From an uncultured Chloroflexia bacterium (GTDB lineage: Bacteria > Chloroflexota > Limnocylindria > Limnocylindrales > CSP1-4), in the NCBI GenBank assembly GCA_963833225.1, contig CAWHXD010000019.1, forward strand, positions 374,075 to 438,074: 64,000 nt of DNA. Direction: 5' to 3'. The position numbers and the translations under genes are program-made. The notes beneath the pieces were generated by a model. That model worked only from the letters and a program-made list of their open reading frames with translations, searched no databases and was not told the origin of the DNA. Position 1 is the stretch's first letter, and every line of letters starts with the position of its first letter. Below, piece by piece: positions 34,892 to 57,821 of the stretch.

Positions 34892-35104
34892 AAGGTTCGA
34901 CTCCAAGCGAAACGGGGAAGGTCGATTTCGAAACTTCGGTTGGTTGCGAATAGGAGCACTTTGCGACGGCGAGCGGGCTCTGTCAAGCGCAATCGCGCCA
35001 GAGATGCCTGGCCTGGGTTGAGTTGGCGCCGTCGGTCGCGTACGATGCGGTATCACAACCAATCGGAATGAGTCGTAACTACTCGGAGAGCAGGCGAACC
35101 GCAG

Positions 35105-41629: not shown

Positions 41630-41703
41630 CGGACACCGTCCCCTCCTGGGACTCGGACCCCCGTCCCCTCCAGGGACTCGGACGCCCGTCCCTCCCGTGT
41701 CCG
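41630..41703. repeat. Three tandem 24-25-bp repeats CGGAC-NCC-GTCCCCTCC-NGGGACT in a long non-coding region
   Basis: CGGACACCGTCCCCTCCTGGGACT / CGGACCCCCGTCCCCTCCAGGGACT / CGGACGCCCGTCCCTCCCGTGTCCG. The first and last copies together form CGGACAC...GTGTCCG. Confidence 0.6.
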
Positions 41704-41770
41704 GGCCGGCTGCGTGACGGGCGCAGAATCGTCGTGCACAGACCTTGAGGGGTGCGGTACCGTTCGGTGG

Positions 41771-41784
41771 TGTTACCGGTAACC
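41771..41784. promoter_or_regulatory. 14-bp palindrome TGTTACC/GGTAACC, candidate LacI-family operator about 75 nt upstream of the LacI regulator gene
   Basis: 13 of 14 positions are self-complementary, with a central CG like many LacI/GalR operators. Confidence 0.4.
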
Positions 41785-41858
41785 GACGCCGCTGGCCCGC
41801 TTCCCCTGCCCTCGATCTCCCTGCGGCCCTCCCGATCCGAACCCAGACCTCAGATCCC

Positions 41859-42905
41859 ATGAGCACCATCAGCGACGTTGCCAGGCGAGCCGGCGTGTCC
41901 GCGATGACCGTCTCGCGGGTCGTCAACGGCACCGGCTACACCAGCACGGAGACGCGCGCCCGCGTGGAGGCGGCCATCAAGGAGCTGGGCTACGTGCCCA
42001 ACGCCCTTGCCCGCCAACTGCGGTCGAAGCGCACCAAGACCCTCGCTCTCGTGGTCTCGGACATCTCCAACCCGTTCTTCACCACGATCGCTCGCGGCGT
42101 CGAGGACGTCGCGATGGCCCACGGCTTCTCGGTCATGTACGGCAACACCGACGAGTCCGAGGCCGAGGAGGAGCAGTACCTCCTGATGCTGGTCGAACGC
42201 CAGATCGACGGCATCCTCCTGGTGCCCACCCGGAGCTCCGGCGAGTCGTTCCGGCTCCTGCGCACCCACCACGTGCCGGTCGTCGTCCTGGACCGCCGGA
42301 TCGACGCCGGCGCCGTCGATACCGTGCGCTGCGATTCCGAGGCCGGTGCCCACGCGCTCACGAGGCACCTGCTCGAGCTCGGCCACCGCGACATCGCCGT
42401 GCTGACCGGCCGCGAGACCATCTCGACCTCCGTCGACCGCGTGGCGGGCTGCCGGCGAGCCATGGAGGAGGCCGGGCTCGACCTGCCCGGCGAGCGCGTG
42501 CAGTATGGCGGCTACATGTTCGGGAAGAGCCACCAGGCCGATGGCCACCGGATGGCGCAACGGGTCCTCGACGGCCTGGGCCTGCTGCCCACGGCCATGT
42601 TCTGTGCCAACAACTTCATCGCCTTCGGGGCGATCCGGGCGCTGCGCGAGCGAGGCCTGCGGGTGCCCGACGACATGAGCATCGTCGCCTTCGACGATCT
42701 GCCGGCGGAATGGGTCAGCGAGCCCTTCCTCACCTGTGCGGCCCAGCCCGCCTACGACATCGGGCACTGCGCCGCCGCGCGCCTCCTCGGCCACATCTCC
42801 GGCGAGCAGGTGCCCAGGGGCGAGTCCGTCGTGCTCCCGTACGAGCTGATCATCCGGCGGTCCAGCGGACCGCCGCGAACCATCGACCTGGTCGCCACGG
42901 GCTGA
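41859..42905 (+). CDS. LacI-family transcriptional regulator
   Basis: The ATG is at 41859. The N-terminal HTH is MSTISDVARRAGVSAMTVSRVVNG and a periplasmic-binding-protein-like effector domain follows. Confidence 0.85.
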   Translation: MSTISDVARRAGVSAMTVSRVVNGTGYTSTETRARVEAAIKELGYVPNALARQLRSKRTKTLALVVSDISNPFFTTIARGVEDVAMAHGFSVMYGNTDESEAEEEQYLLMLVERQIDGILLVPTRSSGESFRLLRTHHVPVVVLDRRIDAGAVDTVRCDSEAGAHALTRHLLELGHRDIAVLTGRETISTSVDRVAGCRRAMEEAGLDLPGERVQYGGYMFGKSHQADGHRMAQRVLDGLGLLPTAMFCANNFIAFGAIRALRERGLRVPDDMSIVAFDDLPAEWVSEPFLTCAAQPAYDIGHCAAARLLGHISGEQVPRGESVVLPYELIIRRSSGPPRTIDLVATG

Positions 42906-42938: not shown

Positions 42939-43358
42939 ATGCTCAAGACCCGCCTGCTTCACCCGGAGATCCTCGCCGCGCTCGGCGAGGCCGGCCACGG
43001 CGCCCAGGTGCTGATCGCGGACGGCAACTACCCGCTGGCCACGCGCTCCAACCCCGACGCCTACCGGGTGTTCCTCAATCTCGCGCCCGGCCAGCTCACC
43101 GTCACCGACGTCCTCGACGTCATCGCCGACGCGATCCCCATCGAGGCCGCCTGCGTGATGGGCCCCGACGATGACACGGAGCCGTCGATCTACGCGGACT
43201 TCCGACGGATCCTGCCGGACACGGAGCTCCAGCGGCTGGGCCGCTTCGAGTTCTACGACATGGCCAGGGGCCCGGACACGGCGCTCGCGATCGCCACCGG
43301 CGAGCAGCGCATCTACGCCAACATCCTGCTCACCATCGGGGTGGTGATGCCCGAGTAG
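42939..43358 (+). CDS. fucU: RbsD/FucU-family sugar mutarotase (L-fucose mutarotase / D-ribose pyranase)
   Basis: 139 aa, [32 protein letters not shown]..., matching the family. It lies directly upstream of fucI. Confidence 0.8.
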
Positions 43359-43410: not shown

Positions 43411-45216
43411 ATGACCACCGTCAACACGTCCGGCCGCTTCGTCGGGGACTGGCCCAGGATCGGTATCCGCCCCGCGGTCGACGGCCGCCAGCACGGCGTC
43501 CGTGAGTCGCTCGAGGAGCAGACCCGGAACATGGCGCTCCGGACGGCGGAGCTCATCCGCGCCAACCTGCGCTACCCGGACGGCACGCCCGTGGAGGTCG
43601 TGGTCCCCGACCACAACATCGGCGGCGTGTACGAGGCGGCCAAGGTTGCCGAGCTGTTCCGCAAGGAGGGCGTTGGCGTCTCGCTGACGATCACGCCCTG
43701 CTGGTGCTACGGCTCCGAGACGATGGACATGGATCCCCTGACCCCCAAGGCCGTATGGGGCTTCAACGGCACCGAGCGCCCGGGCGCTGTGTACCTCGCG
43801 GCGGTCCTCGCCGCCCACACCCAGAAGGGGCTGCCGGCGTTCGGCATCTACGGCCGAGACGTCCAGGACGCCGGCGACGGCACGATCCCTGACGACGTGC
43901 AGGCGAAGATCCTGCGCTTTGCGCGGGCCGGCATGGCCGCCGCGATCCTGCGCGGCAAGTCGTACCTGAGCCTCGGTGGCGTGTCCATGGGCATCGCCGG
44001 CTCGATCGTGGACCAGCCGTTCTTCGAGAAGTACCTGGGCATGCGTGTCGAGGCCGTCGACATGTCCGAGATCTACCGCCGGCTCGAGGAGGGGATCTAC
44101 GACCCGGTCGAGTTCGAGAAGGGTCTCGCCTGGGCCAGGGCCAACTGCCGCGAGGGTGTGGATCGCAACCCGGCCGACAAGGCCAAGACCCGCGAGGAGC
44201 TCGACCGCGACTGGGAGGTCGTGGTCAAGATGACCCTCATCGCGCGCGATCTCCTGGTGGGCAACCCGAGACTCGCCGAGCTCGGCTTCGGCGAGGAGGC
44301 GCTGGGCCGCAACGCGATCCTGGGCGGGTTCCAGGGTCAGCGGGCATGGACCGACCACAGCCCCAACGGCGACTTCATGGAGGCGATCCTCAACTCCAGC
44401 TTCGACTGGAACGGGATCCGCGCCCCGCACATGTTCGCGACCGAGAACGACTCGCTCAACGGCGCGACGATGCTGCTCTCCTACCTGCTGACCAACCGGG
44501 CCCAGATCTTCGCGGACGTCCGCACATACTGGAGCGCGGAGGCCGTGGAGCGGGTGACCGGGCACAGGCTCGAGGGTCTCGCCGCGGGCGGCTTCATCCA
44601 CCTCATCAACTCCGGCGCGGCGACGCTCGACGCCACCGGCGCGATGACGGACGCCGACGGCAAGCCGGCCATGAAGCCGTTCTGGGACATCACCGACGGC
44701 GACGTGAAGGCCGCGCTCGCGGCCACGACCTGGTACCCGGCCAACCGCGGCTACTTCCGCGGCGGCGGCTTCTCCAGCCAGTTCGTGTCCAAGGGCGGGA
44801 TGCCCGTCACCATGGCCCGCCTCAACCTCGTGAGCGGGACCGGACCCGTGCTCCAGATCGCCGAGGGCTGGACCGTGGACCTGCCCACGGATGTCCACGA
44901 CATCCTGGACCAGCGGACGGATCCCACCTGGCCCACCCACTGGTTCGTGCCGCGGACCACGGGCGAGGGCGTCTTCCGCGATGTCTACACCGTGATGGCC
45001 AACTGGGCCGCGAACCACGGTGCGATCAGCTACGGCCACATCGGTGCCGACCTGATCAGCCTGGCCTCGGTGCTCCGGATCCCGGTCCACATGCACAACG
45101 TGGCCGAGGAGGATCTCTTCCGACCCAGCGCGTGGGCCAACCTGGGCACGGCCGATCCGGAGGGCGCCGACTTCCGGGCCTGCGCCAGCTTCGGCCCGCT
45201 CTACGGTCGCAAGTAG
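43411..45216 (+). CDS. fucI: L-fucose isomerase
   Basis: 601 aa, collinear with the FucI family (MTTVN...RIGIRP...[19 protein letters not shown]...). Confidence 0.9.
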
Positions 45217-45306
45217 CCGCCCGCTCGCGTCAGCCTTGCCGGCCGTCCCGCTCTCGGGCGGGGCGGCCGATGCCTGTCCGGGACGGTGCCCGCCGGCCTC
45301 GGTGCC

Positions 45307-45630
45307 TCAGTCCTGGTGGAACAGCTCGTCCATCGACGCCCACCATTCGCCCTCGGCGCGGTCGGCGAGCGGCTCCTGGAGCGGCTTGTTGACCGCCCAC
45401 CACTCCTGGGTCGTGGGATCCTCGCCCATCCGGGCCATGTCTGCCTCGTAGTCCTCGCCGACGTACTCGAAGTAGCTGAACAGCCAGCCGCCGCGGTGGT
45501 AGATCGAGTAGTTGCGGATGTTGCACTCGGTGATCTTGGCGAGCACCGCCGGCCACACCGCGGCGTGGAGCTCGCCGTACCGGGCAAGGTTCTCGGGGGG
45601 CATGCGCAGCACGCTGGCGTACCTGGTCAT
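45307..45630 (-). CDS. rhaM: L-rhamnose mutarotase, second copy
   Basis: The ATG at 45630 follows GGAGG. MTRYASVLRMPPENLARYGELHAAVWP...NYSIYHRGGWLFSYFEYVGED is the RhaM fold. It lies 60 nt downstream of the methyltransferase gene on the same strand. Confidence 0.8.
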   Translation of the reverse strand: MTRYASVLRMPPENLARYGELHAAVWPAVLAKITECNIRNYSIYHRGGWLFSYFEYVGEDYEADMARMGEDPTTQEWWAVNKPLQEPLADRAEGEWWASMDELFHQD

Positions 45631-45711
45631 CCTGGTGCCTCCACGATGCATGGGTGGGGGATTGGCGCCCGGCGGGGAGGAGGTCCGCCGGGCGCCGTGA
45701 TCGACGGAGAG

Positions 45712-46902
45712 CTATTCCGCCGGCAGATGAAGCGGGTACGTCCCGTACTCGCGGACGAGCTTGACGATCTGGTCGTAGGTGTGACCCGACACGTCGCTCG
45801 CGACCGAGTGGTCGCTCATGAATACGTAGCCGCCGCCCTCGGCGGCGCGCAGCCGGTGGAGCACCTCGCGACGTACCTCGTCCGGATCGCCGCGCTCCCA
45901 GACGCGGATGTCGCTGTTGCCGCAGAACGTGAGCCGATGGCCCAGCCGCTCGCGGAGCGTGACGACGTCGAGGTCCGCCTTGGCCTCGAGCGGGTTGTAG
46001 CCGTCGAGCCCGATCTCGATCATGTCCTCGAAGATCGCGTTGGCGTTGCCGCACCCGTGGTACATGACCAGCAGGCCGTGCTGGTGGGCCAGCTCGATGA
46101 TCCGGGCGACCGTCGGCTTGTAGTACTTGCGCCAGTAGGTGGGGCCCATGAACAGGCTCTTGCCGTAGGCGACGTCGCCCCAGATGACGAGCCCGTCCAG
46201 GAGGCCGTCCGCCGCCTCGATCTGGGCCTTGGCGATCTCGTAGCTGAACTCGCCGATGCGAAGCAGCTGCTCGCCGAACCGCTCCGGGAACTCGCCGGTC
46301 CACATCAGGGTGTTGAGCTGGCCCAGGAGGCGCGTGCAGATCTCGGACGCCTCCGTGACGCTGCCGAACACCGGGAAGTCCGGGTACAGCCCCTTGACGG
46401 TCTCCACCCACGGCGGGCTGTTGCGCTCGAAGCCATCGCCCACGCCGGCGATCTGGTTGTCGCCGGCCTCGAAGTAGCGGCGCCGGTCGGTCGGGTCGTC
46501 GAACTCGAACGCCTCCAGCTTCTCGATCGTGTCCGTCTCCCAGCTCACCTGCTCGGGCATCGGCAGGTCGAAGCGCTTGCGGATCGTGGTCTCGAAGCCG
46601 GTCTTGACCACCACCTCCTCGTCGTCCTCGCGGATCGTCTCGAAGGCCCGGATGTGGGGATCCATGTTGGGGACGGTGGTGATGAAGTCGAGGTCGTAGT
46701 GGTAGTACGGATCGGCGTCGGCCGGCAGCCCCAGCTCCGTGCGCCACCGGTCACGGAACTGGCCCCAGAAGAAGTCCGTGATCGGGACGCGGTCCGCCTC
46801 CTGGTGCCCGAAGGTCTTCCGGATCCGGTCCAGCTTGGCCAGCGTCGAGGGCTTGCGGTCCGTGCCTCCGCCCCGTCCGTAGGTCTCGAACATGCCGGGC
46901 AT
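45712..46902 (-). CDS. Uroporphyrinogen-decarboxylase-family (MtaA/CmuA-like) corrinoid methyltransferase
   Basis: The ATG at 46902 follows GGGAG. The 396-aa product has the URO-D N-terminal RVPITDFFW motif and a TIM-barrel C-terminal part with LVMYHGCGNANAIFEDMIEIGLDGYNPLE. Confidence 0.75.
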   Translation of the reverse strand: MPGMFETYGRGGGTDRKPSTLAKLDRIRKTFGHQEADRVPITDFFWGQFRDRWRTELGLPADADPYYHYDLDFITTVPNMDPHIRAFETIREDDEEVVVKTGFETTIRKRFDLPMPEQVSWETDTIEKLEAFEFDDPTDRRRYFEAGDNQIAGVGDGFERNSPPWVETVKGLYPDFPVFGSVTEASEICTRLLGQLNTLMWTGEFPERFGEQLLRIGEFSYEIAKAQIEAADGLLDGLVIWGDVAYGKSLFMGPTYWRKYYKPTVARIIELAHQHGLLVMYHGCGNANAIFEDMIEIGLDGYNPLEAKADLDVVTLRERLGHRLTFCGNSDIRVWERGDPDEVRREVLHRLRAAEGGGYVFMSDHSVASDVSGHTYDQIVKLVREYGTYPLHLPAE

Positions 46903-46906
46903 CGGA

Positions 46907-47536
46907 TCAGCTCCCCGCCAACAGCTGCTTGGCCAGGTCCACCGCCGCACCCGCATCGGGAGCGAAGCCGTCGGCGCCGATCTGCTCGGCGAACTCGGGC
47001 GTGGTGGGCGCGCCACCGATCATCACCTTGGCACCGACGTCGGCGGCCTTGATGGCCTCCACCACGGCCCGCATGTTGGGCATCGTGGTGGTCAGCAGGG
47101 CGCTGAGGCCGATCAGGCGGGCGTCGTGCTCGCGGGCGGCCTCGACGAACTTGGCGGCGGACACGTTCACCCCGAGGTCGATGACCTCGATCGCCGCTCC
47201 CTTGAGCATCATGCCGACCAGGTTCTTGCCGATGTCGTGGAGGTCGCCCTCGACGGTCCCGATCACCGCCGTGTGCTCGGGCCGGATCCCGGCCTCCACC
47301 AGGCTCGGCTCGAGGATGGCCGTGGCTTCCTTCATCGCCCTCGCGGCGATGAGCATCTCGGGGACGAAGATCTCGCCCTCCTGGAACTTGCGGCCGATGA
47401 CCCCCATCGCCTCGGTCATCGCATCCAGGATCTCCTGGGCCGATACGCCCGCCGCCAGGGCCTCGGTTGTCAGCCGGGCCGCCGATGCCCGGTCGCCTGC
47501 CTCGATCGCCCTGCCCAGCTCGCCCAGGTCAGCCAT
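46907..47536 (-). CDS. Cobalamin-binding corrinoid protein (MtaC/MtbC-like: B12-binding-2 helical domain + B12-binding Rossmann domain)
   Basis: The ATG at 47536 follows GAGGAG at spacing 7. The 209-aa product has the His-on B12 motif GDLHDIGKN and the GGAP glycine-rich motif. Confidence 0.8.
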   Translation of the reverse strand: MADLGELGRAIEAGDRASAARLTTEALAAGVSAQEILDAMTEAMGVIGRKFQEGEIFVPEMLIAARAMKEATAILEPSLVEAGIRPEHTAVIGTVEGDLHDIGKNLVGMMLKGAAIEVIDLGVNVSAAKFVEAAREHDARLIGLSALLTTTMPNMRAVVEAIKAADVGAKVMIGGAPTTPEFAEQIGADGFAPDAGAAVDLAKQLLAGS

Positions 47537-47598
47537 GTCTGTGACTCCTCTCGATACCAGGGTCGCGGTGGCCGCTCGTGGCCCCGCTCGCCCCGGGG

Positions 47599-48921
47599 TT
47601 ATGCCTTGGCCAGCCGCATGGCGACGTCGACCCACTCCCAGAGCCGTCGTGCGTCGTAGCGGATCGTGCTGACGTCCTTGAGGATCAGCTCCACCGGTGT
47701 CCCGGTGCGCCGGCACGCGTCGATCGTTGCCTGGAGCTCCTTCTCGACTGCCTCGGGCTCCCAGCTGTCCATCGCGAGGAGCGCCGGGTTGGGCTTGCGC
47801 GAGAACACGAAGTCGGGACCCATGCTCTCCGCGCCACGGTCCACGTTGACCCACGGGCACATCGAGATCTTCCGGACGTTGGGGATCTCCCGGATGATGT
47901 CGATCCGCCGGTCGAGCACGTCGCAGCAGCCGTAGTAGCCGAGCCCGAACCGCTCGTACCAGCGGACGGTGTACGGGATCTCGTACTCCTTGAACATCGC
48001 CGGCGAGGCGGAGGTGAAGACCTGCGCCATGCCCATCGTCCACAGGTCCTCGGCCCGCGGTCGCTCCGGGTCGAAGCCCTCGTGCGGCAGATCGTCGGTC
48101 CAGGCCGGCGTGCAGTGGACCGTGGACATCGAGTGCCCGAGCAGGCCCTGCGCCTCCATCTGGTCGAGCATGCCGAGATACGCGGTCACCAGGCGGTCGA
48201 TGATCCGGCGCGTATGGTCCGGGCGATCCGCCATGTCGATCAGGATGGCCTCCGCGCCTCGCCAGAACTCGATGGTGTCCCAGAAGTTCGCCCCGCCCGC
48301 CAGCAGCTCCGTCGGCCAGTCGTGCACCAGGGCCCGCGTCTCGGGCTGGGACTCGAGGCCGGGCCACTGGTTGGTGCTCGGCACCCAGCCCTGGAGACGG
48401 ACGGGCAGCACGCCGTCGAAGATGTCGTGCGCCTGGGCCTCGATCCGGGCGGTCTCCTCGGCATCGAGCCAGACCTTCGGGGTCCGGATCTTGTCGGCGT
48501 CCGACTCGTTCGCGAGCTGGTCGATGAAGTGGTGGGAGACGATGTCGTTGCGGGCGTCGACGGCCTCGGTCTCCTCGACCATCTCGATCCCGAAGCCATC
48601 CAGGCGGAGGACCTTCGGGATGAGCAGCACCGGCTCGACCACCATGTCCGCGCGTATGTGCTCCCAGCGATACAGGGTGCGGCGAAGATCGATCTCGAGC
48701 CCGCGATTGAATGGGTCCGTGCACTGGTTGACCAGCATCGGATCATCGGCCAGCTCGTGCCAGGGCAGCTGGTCCAGCGCCACCATCGGGCGCTGCGGAT
48801 GCAGGTCGTTGACCGCCTTCCAGAGCGAGATGGTCTCCTGCTGGACGGGCAGCGCCGCGATCTCGGCGACGCGGCTTCCGAGCTCCCGCAGGATCTCGCG
48901 GTCCCGGGCTACCCCGGCCAT
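47599..48921 (-). CDS. URO-D-family methyltransferase, substrate:corrinoid (MT-I) type candidate (440 aa)
   Basis: The ATG at 48921 follows GGAGGAG. The C-terminal YGCCDVLDRRIDIIREIPNVRKISMCPW is an MtaA/URO-D-like block. It is first in the operon. Confidence 0.7.
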   Translation of the reverse strand: MAGVARDREILRELGSRVAEIAALPVQQETISLWKAVNDLHPQRPMVALDQLPWHELADDPMLVNQCTDPFNRGLEIDLRRTLYRWEHIRADMVVEPVLLIPKVLRLDGFGIEMVEETEAVDARNDIVSHHFIDQLANESDADKIRTPKVWLDAEETARIEAQAHDIFDGVLPVRLQGWVPSTNQWPGLESQPETRALVHDWPTELLAGGANFWDTIEFWRGAEAILIDMADRPDHTRRIIDRLVTAYLGMLDQMEAQGLLGHSMSTVHCTPAWTDDLPHEGFDPERPRAEDLWTMGMAQVFTSASPAMFKEYEIPYTVRWYERFGLGYYGCCDVLDRRIDIIREIPNVRKISMCPWVNVDRGAESMGPDFVFSRKPNPALLAMDSWEPEAVEKELQATIDACRRTGTPVELILKDVSTIRYDARRLWEWVDVAMRLAKA

Positions 48922-49218
48922 ATGCCACTCCTCCAGGACGCCTGTATCGTCAACCCTGGGCCGCCGCGGGCCCGTCCGCGACACCTCAAGGGTGCAAGAC
49001 TACCATAATCGGCCGTTGGTATATCGATTTTTCGCGCCATTCGTGGCACCATTCAGGCACCGCGACGTGCGTGACCCGGGCGATCTCCGCACGAATGGGG
49101 AGGACATGAGCCAGACGCTGACAAGGCACCCGGATACGGTGAATGGAGGACCGATGGTTCGTCATGGGCCAGAAGTCACGCGTGATAGCGATCCCAGCCA
49201 CTGCTCGCTGGCCGATCC

Positions 49219-50508
49219 ATGCCCGGCCACGAGGCCCGGGCTGTGACCCCGGCCACGGTCCGCCTCGCCTTTGGTCGAGATGGCCTCGAGATCGACGTGC
49301 CGGCCGGCGTGGACGTGCTCCTGCCACGGGCCCGGGTACCGCTCGCCGACCCTGGGGCGGCGCTCCGGGCGGCGCTGGCCGCGCCGGCGACGGCCCATCC
49401 GCTGCCGGAGCTGGCGCCGATCGGCAGCACCGTGGCGGTGAGCGTCTGTGACGTCACGCGTCCGTTTCCATCGCGGGTGGTCCTCCCGGTGCTCCTCGAT
49501 CAGCTCCCGGGCCGGCACGTGCGGCTGGTGATCGCCACCGGAAGTCATCGCGCGTGCACGGACCGGGAGCTCGAGGCGATGCTCGGACCCCGGGTTCTCG
49601 CCAGGTGCGAGGTGGTCCAGCATGATGCGGATGACCCTGCCGCCCATGTCACGCTGGGAACGGTGCCCGGCTCGGATGTGCCGGCCCGCGTCGATCGCCG
49701 GTTCATCGAGGCGGATGTCCGGGTCACGCTGGGATTCGTGGAGCCCCACTTCTTCGCGGGGTTCTCCGGCGGACCCAAGATGGTGGTTCCCGGCCTGGCC
49801 GGCATCGACACCATCCGCGAGCTGCATTCGGTGGCCCGGATCGCCAGCCCCCACGCGACGTGGGGCGTGCTCGACGGCAACCCGGTCCATGATCCGATCC
49901 GGGCGATTGCCGCCCGCGCCGGCGTGGACTTCGCGCTCGACGTCGCGCTCGACGAGGGGAACCGGATCTCCGCCGTCTTCTCGGGGTCGCTGGAGGCCGA
50001 GCACCGCGAGGCATGCGCCGACGTCCGCCAGACGGCAATGGTCGGCGTCGCGGAGCCGTACGACGTCGTCGTCACGACCAACAGCGGGTATCCGCTGGAC
50101 CAGAACCTCTACCAGTGCGTGAAGGGCCTCAAGGCCGCGGCGGGGATCGTGCGCGACGGTGGCACGATCATCCTGGCTGCGGCCTGCGAGGACGGGCTGC
50201 CAGCCCACGGCCGCTACGCGCACCTGCTGGCGAGCGCGCCCGGACCGGCCGAGTTCCTCGCGGCCCTCTCCCGAGGGGAGATCTCGGAGCGGGACCAGTG
50301 GCAGGTGCAGGTGCAGGCGGGGATCCAGGCGCGCGCTCGCGTCCTCGCCCACACGCCCGGCCTGGGCGCCGAGGATCTGCGGAGGGCGTGGCTTCAGGCG
50401 GCGGATGACGTGGCGGTCGCCCTGCGGGACGCCCTCGCGGTGGCCGGTCCGGGGGCGCGTGCGGCGATCCTGCCAGTCGGTCCCCAGACGATCGCGTATG
50501 TGACCTGA
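49219..50508 (+). CDS. LarA-family protein (nickel-pincer-nucleotide-dependent lactate racemase / 2-hydroxy-acid epimerase family, DUF2088)
   Basis: 429 aa. The family N-terminus (VRLAFGRDGLEIDVP...VAVSVCDVTRP...LVIATGSHRACT) is present. The start may be an internal GTG about 25 nt downstream. Confidence 0.75.
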   Translation: MPGHEARAVTPATVRLAFGRDGLEIDVPAGVDVLLPRARVPLADPGAALRAALAAPATAHPLPELAPIGSTVAVSVCDVTRPFPSRVVLPVLLDQLPGRHVRLVIATGSHRACTDRELEAMLGPRVLARCEVVQHDADDPAAHVTLGTVPGSDVPARVDRRFIEADVRVTLGFVEPHFFAGFSGGPKMVVPGLAGIDTIRELHSVARIASPHATWGVLDGNPVHDPIRAIAARAGVDFALDVALDEGNRISAVFSGSLEAEHREACADVRQTAMVGVAEPYDVVVTTNSGYPLDQNLYQCVKGLKAAAGIVRDGGTIILAAACEDGLPAHGRYAHLLASAPGPAEFLAALSRGEISERDQWQVQVQAGIQARARVLAHTPGLGAEDLRRAWLQAADDVAVALRDALAVAGPGARAAILPVGPQTIAYVT

Positions 50509-50576
50509 GCCCGTTCGTTTGACATGCCAACGTCCGCTGTCTACCGTGGACAAACGTTGTTTCAGAGGAGCCGACC

Positions 50577-51446
50577 TTGACCGTCATCGACGCCCACCAG
50601 CACTTCTGGAACCCGAGCCGCGTCGCCTATGACTGGCTGGGACCGGATCTGGGCCCGATCAACCGGGCCATCGAGTTTGCGGACCTGGAGCCGCTGCTTG
50701 CGGCCACGGGCGTGGAACGCACGGTCCTCGTCCAGTCGGCGGACAACGCAGCCGACACCGACTTCATGTTCGAGATCGCGGCCGCGCACCCCGAGATCGC
50801 GGCCGTGGTCGGCTGGGTCCCACTCGATGATCCGGTTGCCACGGCGGAGCGCCTCCCGGTGTTGCTCGCGAACCCGGTGTTCGCCGGGATCCGCAACCTG
50901 ATCCATACGCAGCCCGATCCCGACTGGCTGCTGAGGCCCGACGTGGATGAGTCCCTGGGCCTCCTCGCTGCCCGGGACGTGCCGTTCGACGTCGTATCGG
51001 TCCTGCCCCGGCACCTGGAGCACGTCCCGACCCTGTCCGAGCGACACCCCGAGCTCCGGATGGTCATCGACCATCTCTCCAAGCCGCCCATCAAGGCCGC
51101 GAGCGACGAGCCCTGGCGGTCCCTCATCGCTCGCGCGGCCGAGAACCCGCTCGTGTTCGCCAAGGTCTCGGGTCTGTACCCGTCCGTCGGCGACATGGCC
51201 GCCTGGACAGCGGACGACGTGCGGCCCTATCTGCACACGGCCCTCGAGCTGTTCGGCGCCAAGCGCCTCATGTTCGGTGGCGACTGGCCGATCTCGGTGC
51301 TGGCCGGTGGGTACGTGCGGGTGTGGGAGAACCTGAGCAGCCTGTTCGACGAGCTGTCGGCCGAAGACCGGGAAGCCATCCTGGGTGGGACCGCGGCGCA
51401 GTTCTATGGAATCCCGGCGGGCCGGCTCCCGGGAGGCGGCGCGTGA
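50577..51446 (+). CDS. Amidohydrolase-2-family sugar lactonase (L-fucono / L-rhamnono-lactonase-like)
   Basis: 289 aa. MTVIDAHQHFW...DWL is the Amidohydro_2 metal-site N-terminus and a conserved ...HL..P motif follows. Its TGA overlaps the next gene (GTGA). Confidence 0.75.
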   Translation: MTVIDAHQHFWNPSRVAYDWLGPDLGPINRAIEFADLEPLLAATGVERTVLVQSADNAADTDFMFEIAAAHPEIAAVVGWVPLDDPVATAERLPVLLANPVFAGIRNLIHTQPDPDWLLRPDVDESLGLLAARDVPFDVVSVLPRHLEHVPTLSERHPELRMVIDHLSKPPIKAASDEPWRSLIARAAENPLVFAKVSGLYPSVGDMAAWTADDVRPYLHTALELFGAKRLMFGGDWPISVLAGGYVRVWENLSSLFDELSAEDREAILGGTAAQFYGIPAGRLPGGGA

Positions 51447-52525
51447 TCACGCGGTTTGATCCCGTCGCCGAGGCCTGCCGGATCGAGGTCCCCGACGCCC
51501 ATCGACGGCCGATCGCCATCGTCGGCGCCGGCGCCATCGTGGACTTCGCGCACCTGCCGGCCTATCGCGCCGCCGGCCTCGAGGTTGCCGGGATCCACAA
51601 CCACCATCCCGCGCGGGCCGTCGACGTGGCCGGCCGTCACGGTGTGCCGCGGGTCTACGAGACGCTCGAGGACCTGCTTGGCGACGACCGGGTCGAGGTG
51701 GTGGACGTCGCCGTGTCCGCGGCCGCCCAGCCCGAGATCGTGCGCCGGGCGCTCGAATCGGGGCGCCACGTGCTAGCCCAGAAGCCGTTCGCACCGGATC
51801 CGGCCACCGGCCAGGCGCTGGTGGACCTCGCCGAGTCGCGCGGGCTGGTCCTGGTCGTGAACCAGCAGCTCCGCTTCGACGAGGGGATGGCCGCGGCCCA
51901 CCGGATGGTCGAGCTGGGCTGGATCGGCGACGTCACCGCGATGTCGATCACGGTCAACATCTGGACGGACTGGCATTCCTGGCCATGGATGCTCGAGACA
52001 CCCCGGCTGGAGGTGATGGTCCATTCGATCCACTATCACGACGTGATCCGCTGGTTCCTGGGCGAGCCGTCGCTCGTGTTCAGCGTCGGAGGCCGCACGC
52101 CGGGCCAGGCGCCCGTCGGGGAGACGCGGACCGTGACCACGTCCACCTATCCGTCCGGCGCGATCTCCGTGGTCCACGCCAACCACGAGAACGGCACCGG
52201 TGACAACCTCGCGACGTTCCGCATCGATGGCTCGCGGGGTGCGATCCGGGGCACCCTGGGCCTGCTCTACGACTACCCCAGCGGGCGGCCGGACACCCTG
52301 GAGATCAGCAGCGAGGTGCTGCCGACTGACGGCTGGGTCCCCTATCCGGTGGGCTCACGCTGGCTGCCCGACGCGTTCCTGGGGCCTATGGCGTCGCTGC
52401 TGCGGGCGGTCGCCACCGGGTCCACGCCCCGTTCCAGCGGCCGCGACAACGTGGGCACGCTGCGGCAGATCCAGCGGATCTACGAATCGATGGAGCGGGG
52501 AGCGGCGGTCCGGGTCGAGGGCTGA
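51443..52525 (+). CDS. Gfo/Idh/MocA-family NAD(P)-dependent oxidoreductase
   Basis: The GTG at 51443 follows GGGAGG. The 360-aa product has an N-terminal Rossmann domain (IAIVGAGAI...HVLAQKP). Confidence 0.8.
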   Translation: MITRFDPVAEACRIEVPDAHRRPIAIVGAGAIVDFAHLPAYRAAGLEVAGIHNHHPARAVDVAGRHGVPRVYETLEDLLGDDRVEVVDVAVSAAAQPEIVRRALESGRHVLAQKPFAPDPATGQALVDLAESRGLVLVVNQQLRFDEGMAAAHRMVELGWIGDVTAMSITVNIWTDWHSWPWMLETPRLEVMVHSIHYHDVIRWFLGEPSLVFSVGGRTPGQAPVGETRTVTTSTYPSGAISVVHANHENGTGDNLATFRIDGSRGAIRGTLGLLYDYPSGRPDTLEISSEVLPTDGWVPYPVGSRWLPDAFLGPMASLLRAVATGSTPRSSGRDNVGTLRQIQRIYESMERGAAVRVEG

Positions 52526-52536
52526 GCCGGCGCCGA

Positions 52537-52998
52537 TCAGGCGGGTGCCGACCCGCGCTTCTCGACGACGTACAGGTGGACGAGGACGAGCACCACCTCG
52601 CCGGCCTGGTTGGTCACGGTCACCGTCTCCTCGACCATGCCCAGCGCCTCGGGTCGCCGGCGGTGGTCGGCCAGGCCCGTGATCTCGGCTCGCACCGTGA
52701 TCGTGTCACCGATGAACACGGGCCGCACGAACCGGACCCGATCGTAGCCGTAGCTCATCGCCCGGGGGTTGATGTCGCCCGCCGTCATGCCCACGGCCAT
52801 CGACATCACGAGCGTGCCATGTGCCATCCGGCGCTCGAAGGCCTGCGTGGCGCACCACTCGGCGTCCATGTGGTGGGGGAAGAAGTCGCCGGTCTGCCCG
52901 GCGTGCAGGACGATGTCGGCCTCGGTCACGGTCCGGCCCGTGGTCGTCCGGCTGGTGCCGGTGACGTAGTCCTCGAAGAACGCCTCAACCGTGTTCAT
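52537..52998 (-). CDS. MaoC-like (hotdog-fold) dehydratase
   Basis: 153 aa with an N-terminal hotdog block ([28 protein letters not shown]). Confidence 0.75.
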
Positions 52999-54143
52999 GT
53001 CGCGGTCTCCTCCTCCCGTGCCCGGGCGACCACCCGGTCGGCCGCCTCCAGGCAGGCCGCGTCGGTCAGCTCACCGCGCAGGGCCCGGTTGACCAGCCCG
53101 CCCACCTCGTCCTGGACCTGCAGCCAGCCATCGAACCGGGGCCGCACCCAGGCGCCGTCCAGCGTCCGCCGCGTGCCGCGGAAGAACCCCAGGCTGTCGG
53201 CGTCGACCGCCTCGTCGTCCCAGGCGTCGATGTTGGCCGGCTGGCCGCCGCTGGCGTAGTAGACGCCGCGCTGGACCTCGCCGCTCGCGAGCCAGAAGGC
53301 ATGGTCGACGGCAATCTCCGGCTGCGGCGAGAAGGCCGACACCGCGATCCCGGCGCCACCCAGGCAGGAGCCGGCGACGCCCCGGGGACCGGCGGGCATG
53401 TCCACGTAGGCGAGGCGGTGGGCACGGAACCCGGCACGGCTGTAGTTCGTATAGCCGAAGGCGAGCGGCGCGTAGCACCAGCGATCATCAGTGGCGAGGC
53501 GTTCCGCAGCCTGGATCGGGTTCTCGTCGAGGCATGCCGGATCGACCAGCTCCGCGAGGTGGTGCAGGTCCTCGAGGATGCCCTCGCCGTCCCCGCGGGC
53601 GATGAACCCGTCCCCGGCGATCGCGGCGCCGCGGTTTGCCGCGAGCGTCAGGAAGCTCGAGATGGCGTCCACCGGCTTGGCCGGCCAGACGACCCTGCCC
53701 GTGCGTGCGAGCTCGAGCACCTCGTCCCACGTCTTCGGCGGCACGGGCAGCAGATCGGGGCGATGGATGGCCACCTGGGCCGCGGCATCGATCGCGAGGC
53801 CGTACTGGTGACCGGCGTGCGCATAGGTCGCGTGTGACGGGCCGACGGCCTGCGTCGCGAGGGCCGCAAGCTCCACGTCACGACCGCACGTGTCGAGCGC
53901 GGCGAGGAGCCCGGCTGTCGCCGCGTGCGGGATGTGCGGATGGTCGATCACCATCAGGTCGTACGTCCGGGCGAGGGTCTCGAGCGGCTGGTCGGCGAAC
54001 CCCTGGAGCGATCGGGCCTCCCACTCCACCCGCACGCCGGGGTGGAGCGAGCTGTAGGCCTCCGCCGCCCCCCGCACGCTGTCCAGGCCGCGCGGATGGT
54101 CCCACGTCATGCCTCGGAGAACCGCCGGCAGCGGATCGCTCAT
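52995..54143 (-). CDS. Solute-binding-protein-like protein without a signal peptide (cytoplasmic SBP_bac_8-like); function unknown
   Basis: The internal ATG at 54143 overlaps the CoA-transferase stop. There is no hydrophobic N-terminus. Confidence 0.5.
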
Positions 54144-55360
54144 GCGCCCGCCGCGTCGTCGATGGGACGGAGGTCCAGCTCCGCGTCGATGGACGCCGTG
54201 TGCTCGCCCAGCCGCGGGGCGCCCCGGTCGCCGCCCAGCGTGCCGTGGTCGATCCGCAGCGGGCTCCGGGTCGTGTGCAGGGTCACCTCGCCGTCGCCCG
54301 TAGCCGAGGGCCGTCGCACCACCCGGTCCATCGCCAGGGCATGGAACCCCTCGTGGCCGACGAGATCGGGCAGCGTGAGCACGGGAGCGCACCACACGTC
54401 CGCCGGCTCCAGGATGTCGAGCCAGTCGCGGGTCGGGCGCGTGGACAGGTGGGCCGCCAGCAGGTCCTCGATCCGCTCCCGCTCCGTCCACCACGTCTCG
54501 GGGTCGCCGAATGCCGACAGGGCATCGAGCCCGATGAGCTCGCCGAGCCGCGGCACCGAGTTCATCGCGAGCGCGAGGTACCCGTCCGCGGTGGGGTAGA
54601 CGCCGTACGGGGCGGCGAGGAAGGCGTTGGCCCCGTGCGGTCCACCGCGGTCAACGAGCACCGACGGATCGTTCAGGTGGGCGCTGAGGAGCTCGAACTG
54701 GAGGTCGAGCATTCCCTCCATCAGGCTGGTCTCCACCAGGCCACCCTTGCCGGTGCGCTCACGGCGCAGGAGCAGCGCCGTGATGCCCTGCGCCAGGTGG
54801 ACCGAGGCGAGCAGGTCCGCGATCGACAGCCCGACCGGCACCGGCCCGTGGTCCCGGCTCCCGCTGAGCCACGGCAGGCCCGACATCGACTGCGCGAGCA
54901 GGTCCTGGCCGGGCAGGTCGCGCCACGGCCCATCGGGCCCGTAGCCGCTCACGCTCCCGTAGACCAGGCGCGGGTTGAGCGCCCGCGCGGATTCGAAGTC
55001 CAGCCCGATGCGCTCCATGACCCCCGGCCGGAAGTTCTGGATGAGCACGTCGGCGCGGGCCACGAGCCGGCGGATGGCCGCCAGGTCGGACGCGTTCTTG
55101 AGGTCGGCGGCGTAGCTCTCCTTGCCGCGGTTCATGATCTGGAACGAGAGGGTGTCGCCGTCGAGGAACTTGCCGGCGAAGGCGAGCGTGCGCCCGATGT
55201 CGCCGACCCCGGGACGCTCGATCTTGATCACCCGGGCCCCGAGATCGGACAGCCGCATCGCGGCGACGGGCCCGGCGAGGAACTGGCTGAAGTCGAGGAC
55301 CAGGATGCCGTCCAACGGCGGGATCGGCACCTTCCGGGCTCCCTCGCGTGCGGCACCCAT
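54140..55360 (-). CDS. Family III CoA-transferase (CaiB/BaiF family)
   Basis: The ATG at 55360 follows GGGAGGAG at spacing 5. LDGILVLDFSQFLAGPVAAMRLSDLGARVIKIE is the family signature. Confidence 0.8.
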   Translation of the reverse strand: MGAAREGARKVPIPPLDGILVLDFSQFLAGPVAAMRLSDLGARVIKIERPGVGDIGRTLAFAGKFLDGDTLSFQIMNRGKESYAADLKNASDLAAIRRLVARADVLIQNFRPGVMERIGLDFESARALNPRLVYGSVSGYGPDGPWRDLPGQDLLAQSMSGLPWLSGSRDHGPVPVGLSIADLLASVHLAQGITALLLRRERTGKGGLVETSLMEGMLDLQFELLSAHLNDPSVLVDRGGPHGANAFLAAPYGVYPTADGYLALAMNSVPRLGELIGLDALSAFGDPETWWTERERIEDLLAAHLSTRPTRDWLDILEPADVWCAPVLTLPDLVGHEGFHALAMDRVVRRPSATGDGEVTLHTTRSPLRIDHGTLGGDRGAPRLGEHTASIDAELDLRPIDDAAGA

Positions 55361-55400
55361 CCGTGCTCCTCCCTCGTCGGCTCGGTTCATCACGTCCTCG

Positions 55401-56615
55401 TCAGCTCGCCGATGCCCGCTCGGCGACCGTGACCAGCGGCTGGCAGGCCGGCCCGATGGGCTCGAAGCTCTTGTAGCCGAGGACGAACTCCTGGTGGCCC
55501 ATCTGCTCGCTCGCGGTCTGGCGGCCATCGGCCACGTCACGGACCAGCTGCACGATCTCGGCACCGACCTCCGCCAGGGTTCCCCGGCCCTCGATCACGC
55601 GCCCGGCGTTGACGTCCATGTCGTCGGCCATCCGGGCGTACGTCTCGGGGTTGGCGCAGACCTTGACGATCGGCGAGATCGCGGACCCCACGACCGAGCC
55701 GCGGCCGGTCGTGAACAGGATCATGTGGGCGCCACAGGCCATGAGCTCGGCCGCCTCGGCGTTGTCGTTGATGTTGGGGAAGCCCCACCGCACCTCGCCG
55801 TCCGGGATCACGTCGAGCAGGTAGAGGCCTGGGTGGGCCGGGATGTCGCCGGGCTTGATGATCCCGCTGATGGCTGCCCGGCCGCTCTTGGCATAGGCGC
55901 CCAGGGACTTCTCCTCGATGGTCGTGAGCCCGCCCTCGGCGTTGCCGGCGGCGAAGCTCCCGTGCCCGAGCACGTTGTAGTAGGCCTCCGCCTTGTGCAC
56001 GGCGCCCACGAGGGCCTGGCCCAGGTCCGGGGTGATCGCGCGCTCCGCCATCCGGTACTCGCAGCCGATGAGCTCGCCGGTCTCCTCGAAGATCGCGACC
56101 GCGCCGGCCGCCACCAGCTGGTCGAACGCGAGGCCGACCGCCGGGTTGGCCGTGATGCCGCTGGTGCTGTCGGAGCCCCCGCAGATGGTGCCGATGACCA
56201 GGTCGGAGAGGTCCATCGGCACCCGCGGGACGCTGGCGATCTCGTTGATGGCCTGCCGGACCCAGGCCCGTCCGGCCTCGATCGTGGCTCGCGTGCCACC
56301 CGCGTGCTGGACGACCAGCGTGTGCACCGGGCGGCCGCTCGCCGCGACGGTCCGCGCGAGCTCGGCCCGGTCGAACCCCTCGCAGCCCAGCGAGACGATC
56401 AGCACCGCACCGACGTTGGGATGGGTCGCGAGCCGGTGGAGCATCAGCGCCCCGTAGTCGTTGGGATAGCAGCCGCCGAACCCGATCACGTGGACGTCGT
56501 CCTCGAGCCCGCTCGCGATGCGGGTGGCGACGTGGTGGGAGCACTCGACCGTGTAGATCACCGCGACGACGTTGCGGATGCCCTTGCGGCCGTCGGACCG
56601 GAGGAACCCCTGCAT
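55401..56615 (-). CDS. UxaA-family sugar-acid dehydratase, large catalytic subunit (altronate/galactarate dehydratase-like)
   Basis: 404 aa, collinear with the UxaA C-terminal domain. Confidence 0.8.
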   Translation of the reverse strand: MQGFLRSDGRKGIRNVVAVIYTVECSHHVATRIASGLEDDVHVIGFGGCYPNDYGALMLHRLATHPNVGAVLIVSLGCEGFDRAELARTVAASGRPVHTLVVQHAGGTRATIEAGRAWVRQAINEIASVPRVPMDLSDLVIGTICGGSDSTSGITANPAVGLAFDQLVAAGAVAIFEETGELIGCEYRMAERAITPDLGQALVGAVHKAEAYYNVLGHGSFAAGNAEGGLTTIEEKSLGAYAKSGRAAISGIIKPGDIPAHPGLYLLDVIPDGEVRWGFPNINDNAEAAELMACGAHMILFTTGRGSVVGSAISPIVKVCANPETYARMADDMDVNAGRVIEGRGTLAEVGAEIVQLVRDVADGRQTASEQMGHQEFVLGYKSFEPIGPACQPLVTVAERASAS

Positions 56616-56619
56616 GCGG

Positions 56620-56937
56620 TCAGGCCTCCCCTCGCGCGTGCGTGCGCATGTAGATGCTGGTGAGGTTGTGGGTGTGGATCAGCTCGCCGCGGGTGACCGG
56701 CTGCGTCGTCCGTCCGATGGGCATCCCGTACCGGATCGCGTCGGTTCCCTGGGCGAGGTCCAGGGCAGCGACCTTGAACCCCAGTGGCAGCGGGACCTGC
56801 GTCTCGACGCTGACCCCGTCGACCATCATCCGCTCGCCGGCGGCGATGGCGGCGATCACGATCAGCACGTTGTCCCCGTCCGCGAGCCGGAGCAGCCGGG
56901 GATCGGATCCGCCCGCGTCGCTCACAGGACGTGCCAC
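56620..56937 (-). CDS. SAF-domain small subunit of the UxaA-type dehydratase
   Basis: 105 aa. It lies 4 nt upstream of the large subunit. The split UxaA organisation is a known one. Confidence 0.7.
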   Translation of the reverse strand: MARPVSDAGGSDPRLLRLADGDNVLIVIAAIAAGERMMVDGVSVETQVPLPLGFKVAALDLAQGTDAIRYGMPIGRTTQPVTRGELIHTHNLTSIYMRTHARGEA

Positions 56938-57611: not shown

Positions 57612-57821
57612 GCGGGGCAGTATAGCCACCCCGCTTCCGAGCGTACAGGGGGCAACTTCCGGCTGAAATGTATCGTTCGATATAGGAGCGTCGAGGGTGC
57701 TGTTTATCGTTACCAGATTGACATTTGCGGCCGCGAATGGTTACCCTGCCTTCGTTCCGGCGCTGTCCGTTCAGGTCGGTCGCCGGCGGTGGCAGGGACC
57801 ACACCTTTGGAGGAGCTATCT

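Follow-up and report, generated by a model that had tools for sequence, protein, structure and literature searches.

How can a bacterium use a sugar that carries a methyl ether? This question is raised by a four-gene operon at positions 45307-48921 of a 64,000-nucleotide stretch of DNA from an uncultured Chloroflexia bacterium (contig CAWHXD010000019.1), which is referred to here, at its full length, as the window. Methyl-etherified sugars, such as the 2-O-methyl-fucose and 2-O-methyl-xylose of the pectic polysaccharide rhamnogalacturonan II (RG-II) or the methylated rhamnoses and fucoses in glycans of algae, cyanobacteria and bacteria, are dead ends for the standard sugar pathways. The only sugar demethylase known to us is an O2-dependent cytochrome P450 that acts on 6-O-methyl-galactose. 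Judged from its sequence and from the company that its relatives keep, the operon probably specifies a corrinoid-dependent O-demethylase for a methyl-etherified 6-deoxyhexose, with 2-O-methyl-L-fucose as the most probable substrate. An initial annotation had suggested an O-methyl-deoxyhexose demethylase assembled from three proteins. The comparisons described here support this idea and sharpen it to a putative methyl-fucose demethylase centred on a single protein, termed geneC: genes for corrinoid and tetrahydrofolate (THF) chemistry are linked to geneC in its own clade, and RhaM, RhaT, GH29 and GH139 genes accompany it elsewhere, while the assignment of roles to all three proteins is not established. 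As such, the new element would most likely be the use of corrinoid methyl transfer on a new substrate class, together with one unannotated protein family.

The operon consists of four co-directional genes on the minus strand, as had been noted before. The first, geneA (47599-48921, ATG start), encodes a 440-aa protein with a predicted UroD/MtaA/MetE-type barrel fold from a family without annotation; the second (46907-47536) encodes a 209-aa corrinoid protein (CP), a cobalamin-binding carrier of the methyltransferase-cognate type; the third, geneC (45712-46902), encodes a 396-aa, MtaA-like member of the URO-D superfamily, which is the proposed methyl-sugar:corrinoid methyltransferase (MT-I); and the last (45307-45630) encodes a 107-aa RhaM-family protein of a distinct subtype, called the operon subtype below. 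Genes were called by a filter on GC content at third codon positions (GC3) and by reading of the minus strand. In this genome of about 70% GC (the value of the window), GC3 values of 0.92-0.94 mark geneA, geneC and the RhaM gene as real, whereas the CP gene failed the filter and was accepted because of its Pfam domains and conserved orthologs. The spacers measure 62 nt (geneA-CP), 4 nt (CP-geneC) and 81 nt (geneC-rhaM) rather than the 5-60 nt given originally, and the last would shrink to 60 nt only with an upstream ATG at 45651. Likewise, the ribosome-binding sites that had been reported for three of the genes are real, but such GGAG-type sites precede all four starts. The motifs quoted at the time are all present, GDLHDIGKN and GGAP in CP and RVPITDFFW in geneC. 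Five further contigs of Limnocylindria type (L001/L015, L014, L018, L022 and L094; loci are designated by L numbers throughout) show the order geneA-CP-geneC, either with rhaM or without it, and this recurrence argues that the order is more than a product of chance. We refer to this arrangement as the type I operon.

The sequence of geneC places it near, but outside, a known methyltransferase family. It matches PF01208 with 68.1 bits (cut-off 23.9) in its C-terminal half only (residues 169-386), and its N-terminal half does not align to the URO-D profile. The protein has a UroD-type (beta/alpha)8 barrel, and its closest solved relative, by sequence and by fold, is the methylcobalamin:CoM methyltransferase MtaA (PDB 4ay7). 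The earlier description of geneC as UroD/MtaA-like is borne out as regards superfamily and nearest relative. The scores stay below the MtaA and CmuA cut-offs; by sequence comparison, geneC is a relative of the MtaA/CmuA family (TIGR01463, NF040654) and not a member as curated. Invariant in geneC are the motifs YHGCGN (H282, C284) and SDHS (D364, H365). H282-G-C284 aligns with the HICGN of MtaA, whose zinc site we take to consist of His-x-Cys and a distal Cys. The orthogroup is tight, with representatives 66% and 53% identical to geneC and the next full-length relative at no more than 39%, in a library clustered at 50%. Public databases label geneC as 'uroporphyrinogen decarboxylase' or hypothetical. 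A HemE identity, which the initial annotation had named among the signs against its proposal, is not indicated: neither geneC nor geneA matches the hemE equivalog TIGR01464 at E 0.01 or better, a model that the same library did return for an unrelated URO-D protein of L049. Pfam scans of the genes of the window, which cover the 64 kb apart from a few stretches between gene calls, revealed none for the synthesis of haem or corrins.

The second protein is a corrinoid carrier by its sequence features. CP matches PF02310 with 99.7 bits and PF02607 with 69.3 bits, and thereby combines the B12-binding_2 cap with the B12-binding Rossmann domain that characterize methyltransferase-cognate corrinoid proteins. 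Its cobalamin signature is complete and canonically spaced: DxHxxG(98)-41-SxL(145)-26-GG(174). The best NCBIfam models (MtgC, pyl_corrinoid, MtbC and MtaC) are all far below their cut-offs (for instance 183.6 against 370), and because the MtgC, MtbC and MtaC equivalogs all fall short, the substrate class cannot be read from CP itself. In public sources, the protein carries the label '5-methyltetrahydrofolate--homocysteine methyltransferase'.

Where, then, do relatives of geneC occur, and with which partners? A geneC profile matched at least 584 loci in a set of genomes that represents each GTDB species once; relatives of geneC are spread over several hundred species of polysaccharide-degrading bacteria. 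Neighbourhoods were counted with a tblastn query panel over 80 retained loci, 13 of them Limnocylindria-type and 67 from outside the Chloroflexi (Verrucomicrobiota, Planctomycetota, Lentisphaerota, Bacteroidota, Acidobacteriota, Hydrogenedentota and Omnitrophota), and were compared by Fisher tests with 48 control loci, which are metagenome loci of at least 6 kb with short-form geneA orthologs, from apparently comparable environments, their taxonomy not being given. The best geneC matches listed (83-95% identity) come from metagenome-assembled genomes labelled Candidatus Limnocylindrales or uncultured Chloroflexia (Chloroflexota, Limnocylindria), and across the Limnocylindria loci the orthologs are 61-95% identical. 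An actinomycete origin of the window, which its 70% GC might suggest, was rejected on the strength of these best matches.

Within this clade, the link to corrinoid chemistry is nearly invariant. In 12 of the 13 Limnocylindria-type loci, the gene immediately upstream of geneC encodes CP, and the thirteenth has a partial match; among the controls, a CP gene is found in 2 of 48 (p = 6.5e-10). Besides the type I operon, the clade contains a type II arrangement, Gfo(-RhaM-SDR)-CP-geneC-UROD418, where hhalign identifies UROD418 as a paralog of geneC with a probability of 99%. Type II operons run on into FolD and formate-THF ligase (FTHFS) in L019, L020, L021, L023 and L024. Specifically, L024 reads Gfo-CP-geneC-UROD418-MTHFR-Pterin_bind-FolD-FTHFS, and its Pterin_bind protein best matches a methyl-THF:corrinoid/iron-sulfur protein methyltransferase (NF005719, 172 bits) and also the pterin module of MetH. 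By its gene content, L024 has the standard layout of a corrinoid demethylation pathway, in which the methyl group would pass to THF and on to formate. Corrinoid genes also adjoin geneC in other phyla. L087 (Verrucomicrobiae) has the order geneC-CP-MtaB-URO-D, with a full-length MtaB (E 1e-165), L081 (Opitutaceae) has geneC-RhaT-RhaM-MtaB, L049 has geneC-RhaT-RhaM-URO-D-CP-URO-D and L042 has geneC-CP, while in L061 (Pirellulales) a GH29 gene adjoins and FTHFS and FolD lie about 4-7 kb downstream of geneC.

Sugar genes, in turn, are the conserved neighbours of geneC outside the Chloroflexi. A RhaM gene of the operon subtype occurs in 38 of the 67 loci, in 32 of them within 2.5 kb, and in none of the 48 controls (p = 2e-12). 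These RhaM proteins are 46-66% identical to the operon RhaM and 31-40% identical to the other RhaM of the window. As the adjacency of geneC and this particular RhaM subtype is conserved across phyla, a functional coupling of the two is indicated. The operon RhaM itself matches PF05336 over its full length (102.7 bits), scores 30.5 bits against the YiiL equivalog TIGR02625 (cut-off 99.6) and is 34% identical to the second RhaM of the window (29000-29380); as far as these matches go, it is a PF05336 family member whose sugar specificity cannot be read from them. RhaT-type transporters accompany geneC in 21 of the 67 loci (controls 0/48, p = 2.5e-6), GH139 homologs in 16 (controls 0/48, p = 7.5e-5) and GH29 fucosidase homologs in 12, and at least one of RhaM, RhaT, GH29 and GH139 is present in 51. 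Pfam assignments of 132 co-directional downstream genes tell the same story, with RhaT (25) and rhaM (25) ahead of DUF5703_N (9), GH95 (7), URO-D (5), GH29 (3), B12-binding (3), GH141 (2) and MtaB (1). The conserved partners are thus sugar genes and not the methylamine or betaine genes that the initial annotation had named among the signs against its proposal.

The DUF5703 neighbours provide a specific pointer to a substrate. One of them (L062, 5340-7616) matches 9hmb_A with E 7e-187 (residues 35-749) and 9hyq_A with E 1e-115, which amounts to full-length similarity to crystallised GH139 proteins. As described by their authors, 9hmb and 9hyq are the first GH139 structures, GH139 enzymes are exo-acting, inverting 2-O-methyl-alpha-L-fucosidases and 'the only family known' to release the methylated fucose MeFuc, and about 1% of GH139 sequences are without the catalytic acid (PMC12282258). 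In several loci, GH139 and geneC share a strand and are separated by just 19-41 nt. In the clade of the window, the pointer is a different one: FucI is found near geneC in the window, L014, L015, L017 and L018, accompanied by FucU in all of these but L014.

Corrinoid and one-carbon (C1) neighbours on the one hand and fucose-type neighbours on the other meet at geneC, and the simplest reconciliation is that geneC moves the O-methyl group of a methylated 6-deoxyhexose to Co(I). All steps of the following scheme come from homology and gene neighbourhood. The methylated sugar would be imported, and the RhaM-type protein would interconvert its anomers; since the inverting GH139 would yield the beta anomer, a reason for a dedicated mutarotase-type partner suggests itself. 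The MtaA-like barrel of geneC, with its conserved His-x-Cys...His site, would then bind the methylated sugar, and the Co(I) form of the 209-aa CP would attack the O-methyl group to give the methyl-Co(III) protein and free L-fucose. In the sister genomes, the methyl group would pass to THF by means of a MeTr-like methyltransferase II (MT-II) and would then be oxidized by MTHFR, FolD and formate-THF ligase, while in two Verrucomicrobiota loci the adjacent MtaB suggests its release as methanol. GeneA may act as the acceptor partner or as a second substrate-specific methyltransferase on the same carrier. The freed L-fucose could finally enter the adjacent FucU and FucI. Aldose-ketose isomerisation needs a free 2-OH, so that a 2-O-methyl group would be expected to block the isomerase and demethylation would have to precede FucI.

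Several observations weigh against this reading, and the first of them concern geneA. Its placement among UroD-like proteins is due solely to structure prediction. GeneA has no match in Pfam (at E 0.01 or better, and thus none to PF01208), in NCBIfam or in the PDB (phmmer and a 32-sequence profile), and profile-profile comparisons with geneC and with the UROD418 paralog revealed no relationship. The earlier term 'UroD-like' for the 440-aa protein is therefore backed by the predicted fold and not by any sequence match; the predicted models of geneA and geneC both also match MetE, and public databases call geneA hypothetical. Of the 80 metagenome loci of short-form orthologs that were fetched, 48 were counted, the same that serve as controls above: besides the two with CP, five have URO-D paralogs, and RhaM, RhaT, GH139 and THF genes are near none of them. 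Their neighbours are heterogeneous, with Gfo oxidoreductases the commonest, and the wider geneA family shows no link to genes for corrinoid proteins, RhaM or fucose use. Because the short-form orthologs are not generally linked to corrinoid genes, the idea of geneA as a dedicated MT-II was dropped. The triad of MT-I, CP and MT-II that the initial annotation had seen, with the 440-aa protein as one of its members, is likewise not established, as the sole MT-II of a sister locus, that of L024, is a pterin-binding MeTr-like protein and not a UroD protein.

A second group of points concerns geneC and its chemistry. GeneC scores weakly against the MtaA and CmuA models (TIGR01463, 30.8 bits against 235.4; MtaA, 37.2 against 400; PRK06252, 47.7 against 244), and its distal motif SDH365S, a putative metal ligand, aligns with a His of UroD and not with a Cys as in MtaA. 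Unactivated alkyl methyl ethers are not known to be attacked by Co(I), and methanol activation by MtaB is the only precedent of which we are aware. Outside the Limnocylindria, CP lies within about 10 kb of geneC in 3 of the 67 loci, no more often than in the controls; either the carrier is encoded elsewhere in those genomes, or most or many members work without one. In addition, two UroD-fold genes stand side by side without CP in L040, L074, L097, L116 and L150, and such pairs leave room for a MetE-like, corrinoid-independent double-barrel mechanism.

The third group concerns the window. As had been remarked in the initial annotation, no methyl-acceptor enzyme and no reductive activase are found there: the scanned genes include no MT-II (Pterin_bind, MtrH or MeTr-like), MTHFR, FolD or Fhs, and no RACE/Ram activase or cobalamin supply genes. 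A scan of the whole window with Rfam gave no match at all, and thus no cobalamin riboswitch. Co-transcription of geneC and rhaM is inferred, and the 81-nt spacer between them holds a conserved hairpin. Finally, GH139 is absent from the window and was not detected in the 13 Limnocylindria-type loci scanned, so that the sugar of the organism in the window is extrapolated from other phyla and from the adjacency of FucU and FucI.

Which other explanations could accommodate these data? The first retains a corrinoid demethylase and changes the sugar, the link to GH139 then reflecting co-occurrence in the same glycans and not the direct substrate. Such a sugar could be 2-O-, 3-O- or 4-O-methyl-L-rhamnose, a further isomer of O-methyl-fucose, 2-O-methyl-D-xylose or 4-O-methyl-glucuronate. 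The transporter and the small protein beside geneC come from families named after rhamnose (RhaT and RhaM), GH139 is present in merely 16 of the 67 loci and in none from Limnocylindria, a full rhamnose cluster with its own RhaM is also encoded in the window, and the crystallised GH139 protein SDT91673.1 was inactive on all substrates tested (PMC12282258). Against this explanation, the operon RhaM is just 34% identical to the RhaM of the rhamnose cluster and the RhaT-like proteins score below every RhaT equivalog cut-off. Furthermore, the glycosidases adjacent to geneC belong to the fucosidase families GH29, GH95, GH139 and GH141, the 25 commonest Pfam families downstream include none of rhamnosidases, and the flanking catabolic genes in Limnocylindria are FucI and FucU. 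We consider another sugar unlikely.

Also rather unlikely, but of a different nature, is the possibility that geneC and geneA are UroD-fold enzymes acting on fucose- or rhamnose-type sugars without any corrinoid, with CP as a lineage-specific addition or part of another process. Such enzymes might transfer the methyl group directly to THF or a thiol in the manner of MetE, or catalyse a reaction other than methyl transfer. The 64 of 67 non-Chloroflexi loci that are without CP within 10 kb, a frequency like that of the controls, fit this explanation, as do the paired UroD-fold genes mentioned above, which recall the double barrel of cobalamin-independent methionine synthase, and the match of both predicted models to MetE. 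It is at odds with the almost invariant CP-geneC adjacency in Limnocylindria, with its spacer of 4 nt, with the presence of CP or MtaB directly beside geneC in four independent Verrucomicrobiota loci, and with L024, which has a complete corrinoid-to-THF module including a MeTr-like MT-II. Every characterised MtaA-like member of the superfamily other than HemE that we know of uses a corrinoid.

It appears improbable that the triad is a common C1 methylotrophy module, one that serves the use of methanol, methylamines, glycine betaine or methylated thiols and has the sugar neighbours and rhaM as incidental company. Such a module could draw on the best NCBIfam models of CP, which are glycine-betaine, dimethylamine and methanol corrinoid proteins, on MtaB in two loci, and on related MtaA-like clusters of anaerobes for which a role in methyl-sulfur or methyl-selenium metabolism has been proposed (PMC10418091). 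Yet the CP matches are all far under the equivalog cut-offs, the window yielded neither an MttB-superfamily gene nor an MtaB gene, and the geneC orthogroup is tied to RhaM, RhaT, GH139 or GH29 in 51 of 67 loci from at least five phyla; moreover, those mlp clusters are confined to obligate anaerobes and always come with a RACE activase (PMC10418091). Most improbable of all is the biosynthetic direction, the methylation of a deoxyhexose by methyl-corrinoid: corrinoid methyl transfers are reversible in principle and MtaA-type enzymes normally move methyl groups from the corrinoid to an acceptor, but the context is catabolic everywhere (importers, exo-glycosidases, an isomerase, AraC and LacI regulators), no glycosyltransferase or NDP-sugar genes are adjacent, and the THF genes (FolD, Fhs, MTHFR) are laid out as in C1-oxidation clusters.

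The proposed corrinoid-dependent methyl-fucose demethylase can be compared with several known systems. Among them are the aryl methyl ether O-demethylases of Acetobacterium dehalogenans (Odm/Vdm), Desulfitobacterium hafniense and Moorella (Mtv), which consist of MT-I, CP, MT-II and an activating enzyme. Shared features are a UroD-superfamily methyltransferase beside a small DxHxxG corrinoid protein, a pterin-binding MT-II that serves THF (here in sister loci), and arrays of paralogous UroD-like genes (L141, L150, L165 and L177) that resemble the MT-I repertoires of those anaerobes. The inferred substrate, in contrast, is an aliphatic carbohydrate methyl ether and not a phenyl methyl ether, the hosts are polysaccharide degraders of the Limnocylindria, Verrucomicrobiota, Planctomycetota and Bacteroidota and not acetogens or organohalide respirers, a RACE-type activase did not turn up in the window, and no O-demethylase or MtaA model is matched above its cut-off. 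With MtaABC of Methanosarcina, the operon shares MtaA (4ay7) as the nearest solved relative of geneC, the HxCGN motif, an MtaC-like CP and, in L081 and L087, a full-length MtaB beside geneC; it differs by the lack of a coenzyme M context, by the 37 bits of geneC against the 400 demanded by the MtaA equivalog, by His instead of Cys at the third metal-ligand position and by sugar genes as conserved partners. HemE has the same fold, and geneC keeps the His of the C-terminal (G/D)H(G/S) motif, but the hemE model is not matched, no tetrapyrrole genes are nearby and the operon partner is CP.

Three further systems are instructive. The aerobic chloromethane pathway of Methylobacterium (CmuA/CmuB with MetF, FolD and PurU; PMC3621897) likewise places a corrinoid pathway in an aerobe, clusters it with THF-dependent C1 oxidation, as in L024, and has no RACE; it differs in that it acts on a methyl halide, has methyltransferase and corrinoid protein fused in CmuA and is without a sugar context. 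Type 1 mlp clusters (PMC10418091) have several MtaA-like UroD-superfamily proteins around one CP, no THF methyltransferase in the cluster and no known function, much like the operon, but they occur only in obligate anaerobes, always include Ram/RACE, have a proposed methyl-sulfur or methyl-selenium role and are without sugar genes. An assignment of the operon to the mlp clusters (Kountz and Balskus, PMC10418091) was rejected on the grounds of host range, RACE and sugar context. Lastly, the P450 6-O-methyl-D-galactose demethylase of marine Bacteroidota, which is part of porphyran and agar utilisation (PMC6292453), also removes a methyl ether that blocks catabolism and is encoded within carbohydrate-utilisation loci. 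It is an oxidative enzyme of an unrelated protein family that needs O2 and redox partners and releases formaldehyde.

In the full-text literature searched, which covers few subscription journals, neither a sugar demethylase that depends on a corrinoid nor a UroD-like protein with a part in the utilisation of fucose, rhamnose or RG-II was found described. A term search for 'demethyl' in the GH139 study (PMC12282258) gave no occurrence, and the fate of the released MeFuc is apparently not addressed there. If correct, the proposed function would account for the use of methylated sugars by anaerobic and microaerobic glycan degraders, and carbohydrate ethers would join aryl ethers and methanol as substrates of Co(I) methyl-transfer chemistry. 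The function would also introduce a vitamin-B12 dependency and a C1 output (methyl-THF, formate or methanol) into the turnover of pectin and algal glycans in soil, water and gut, and would correct the public labels 'uroporphyrinogen decarboxylase', 'methionine synthase' and 'hypothetical protein'.

A broader version of this proposal can be put forward only tentatively, and we think it doubtful as a whole. Here, geneC-type enzymes would be the missing 2-O-methyl-L-fucose step in at least five phyla of glycan degraders, including gut Bacteroides-type genomes, and would also serve related methylated deoxyhexoses; their Co(I)-corrinoid chemistry would act on an unactivated aliphatic methyl ether. 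GeneA would represent a second, as yet unannotated family of UroD-fold methyltransferases on the same carrier, with a substrate such as the 2-O-methyl-D-xylose of RG-II, and the methyl group would leave as methyl-THF or, in loci with an adjacent MtaB, as methanol, a reversed MtaB in the latter case giving net ether hydrolysis. The MtaB genes are of interest in their own right. They are full-length in both Verrucomicrobiota loci (L087, 11260-14397, together with CP and an MtaA-like gene; L081, 12836-14212), and their unexpected presence in glycan degraders that are neither methanogenic nor acetogenic suggests either methanol release from methyl-CP or methanol use via the same carrier.

For geneA itself, a role as a candidate second methyltransferase can be entertained on the strength of its predicted structure, with its function in the operon uncertain. 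Plausibly, it is one of a repertoire of substrate-specific methyltransferases. Other homologs of geneA sit among genes of the GH127, GH36, GH31, GH2, GH78/GH116-type, GH123, GH28 and GH106 families, near P450 and ferredoxin genes, or near other URO-D genes. In L165, a geneA ortholog of 62% identity is followed by CP, and a second CP there has URO-D paralogs on its flanks. Together with L141, L150 and L177, this metagenome locus belongs to a set of islands with three to five paralogous URO-D-like genes and geneA homologs from uncultured environmental bacteria, of which L165 has the two CPs. The P450 genes are found beside geneA homologs in sugar-catabolic clusters (L010, 2541-3758, and L096, 11548-13080), one of them with an adjacent ferredoxin. 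This arrangement recalls the P450 sugar demethylases and hints that methylated sugars are handled by two chemistries. A further geneA homolog lies in L004-L007 (8001-16924), which represent one bacterium, the protein cluster being labelled Armatimonadetes by NCBI. After this homolog come genes for a sulfite-oxidase-like molybdoenzyme, for a 1,383-aa protein that combines rhamnosidase-type (Bac_rhamnosid6H) with GH116 catalytic domains and for a nucleoside-hydrolase-like protein, as well as two URO-D genes, and a HicA/HicB-type toxin-antitoxin pair is located immediately upstream.

The signals that might control the operon are few. The hairpin between geneC and rhaM (45664-45696, minus strand) has a perfect 12-bp GC stem and a 9-nt loop, ACCUCCUCC, and is without a U-tract; its predicted RNA fold has -44.4 kcal/mol (z -3.2), no canonical terminator was scored at this position, and L001 retains the element (13229-13261) with a compensatory stem change from C-G to U-A. 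About 25 nt further downstream lies the GGAGG ribosome-binding site of rhaM, to which the loop is complementary. The hairpin could be a processing or stability element, or it could serve translational control of rhaM. The divergent intergenic region between geneA and the LarA-like gene (48922-49218) presumably contains the operon promoter. Scans of this region for sigma-70 consensus sequences and palindromes found none, promoter and terminator consensus scans of 45100-49300 gave nothing, and no LacI operator or palindrome was found upstream of geneA or in common with the region upstream of fucU-fucI.

On the side of rhaM, domain matches confirm the LacI regulator, FucU and FucI that had been named as immediate neighbours. 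The LacI-family gene (41745-42905, plus strand; PF00356 and Peripla_BP domains) lies upstream of fucU (42939-43358, plus strand; PF05025) and fucI (43411-45216, plus strand; NCBIfam equivalog with 1039 bits, cut-off 775), both of which converge with the operon. By its domains, the LacI-family protein is a possible regulator of the region, and a short imperfect direct repeat with units like GTCCCCTCC(T/A)GGGACTCGGAC is located upstream of its gene (41633-41700). On the other side, the LarA-like protein, the lactonase (a fuconolactonase-like Amidohydro_2 protein), the Gfo oxidoreductase and the UxaA-type dehydratase are present as described, but the FAH genes are not: none was found near the operon, where MaoC, CoA-transferase III, SAF and RraA-like genes occur instead. 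These genes form a syntenic block next to the operon (49219-57629; LarA-like, Amidohydro_2, Gfo, MaoC hydratase, solute-binding protein, CoA-transferase III, UxaA-type dehydratase, SAF and RraA-like aldolase) with counterparts in L001 (1117-9636) and L094 (505-7571). The LarA-like protein reaches 431.5 bits against a lactate racemase cut-off of 460. In a setting of deoxy-sugar acids, the combination of a nickel-pincer racemase homolog, a CoA-transferase and MaoC has the look of a pathway not yet described.

Two other regions of the window merit mention. At 24029-38364, a canonical rhamnose-type catabolic cluster comprises a SorC regulator, a class II aldolase, a rhamnose-isomerase-like TIM barrel, an FGGY kinase, the second RhaM, parts of an ABC transporter, a DeoR regulator and a fused aldolase-SDR protein (RhaEW-like). 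With a RhaM in this cluster, the genome thus keeps two RhaM paralogs with different partners. On the minus strand at 8904-12005, genes for a multihaem cytochrome c7-like protein, an NrfD-type membrane subunit and a 4Fe-4S dicluster protein make up a quinol-oxidoreductase-type module that is unrelated to the operon.

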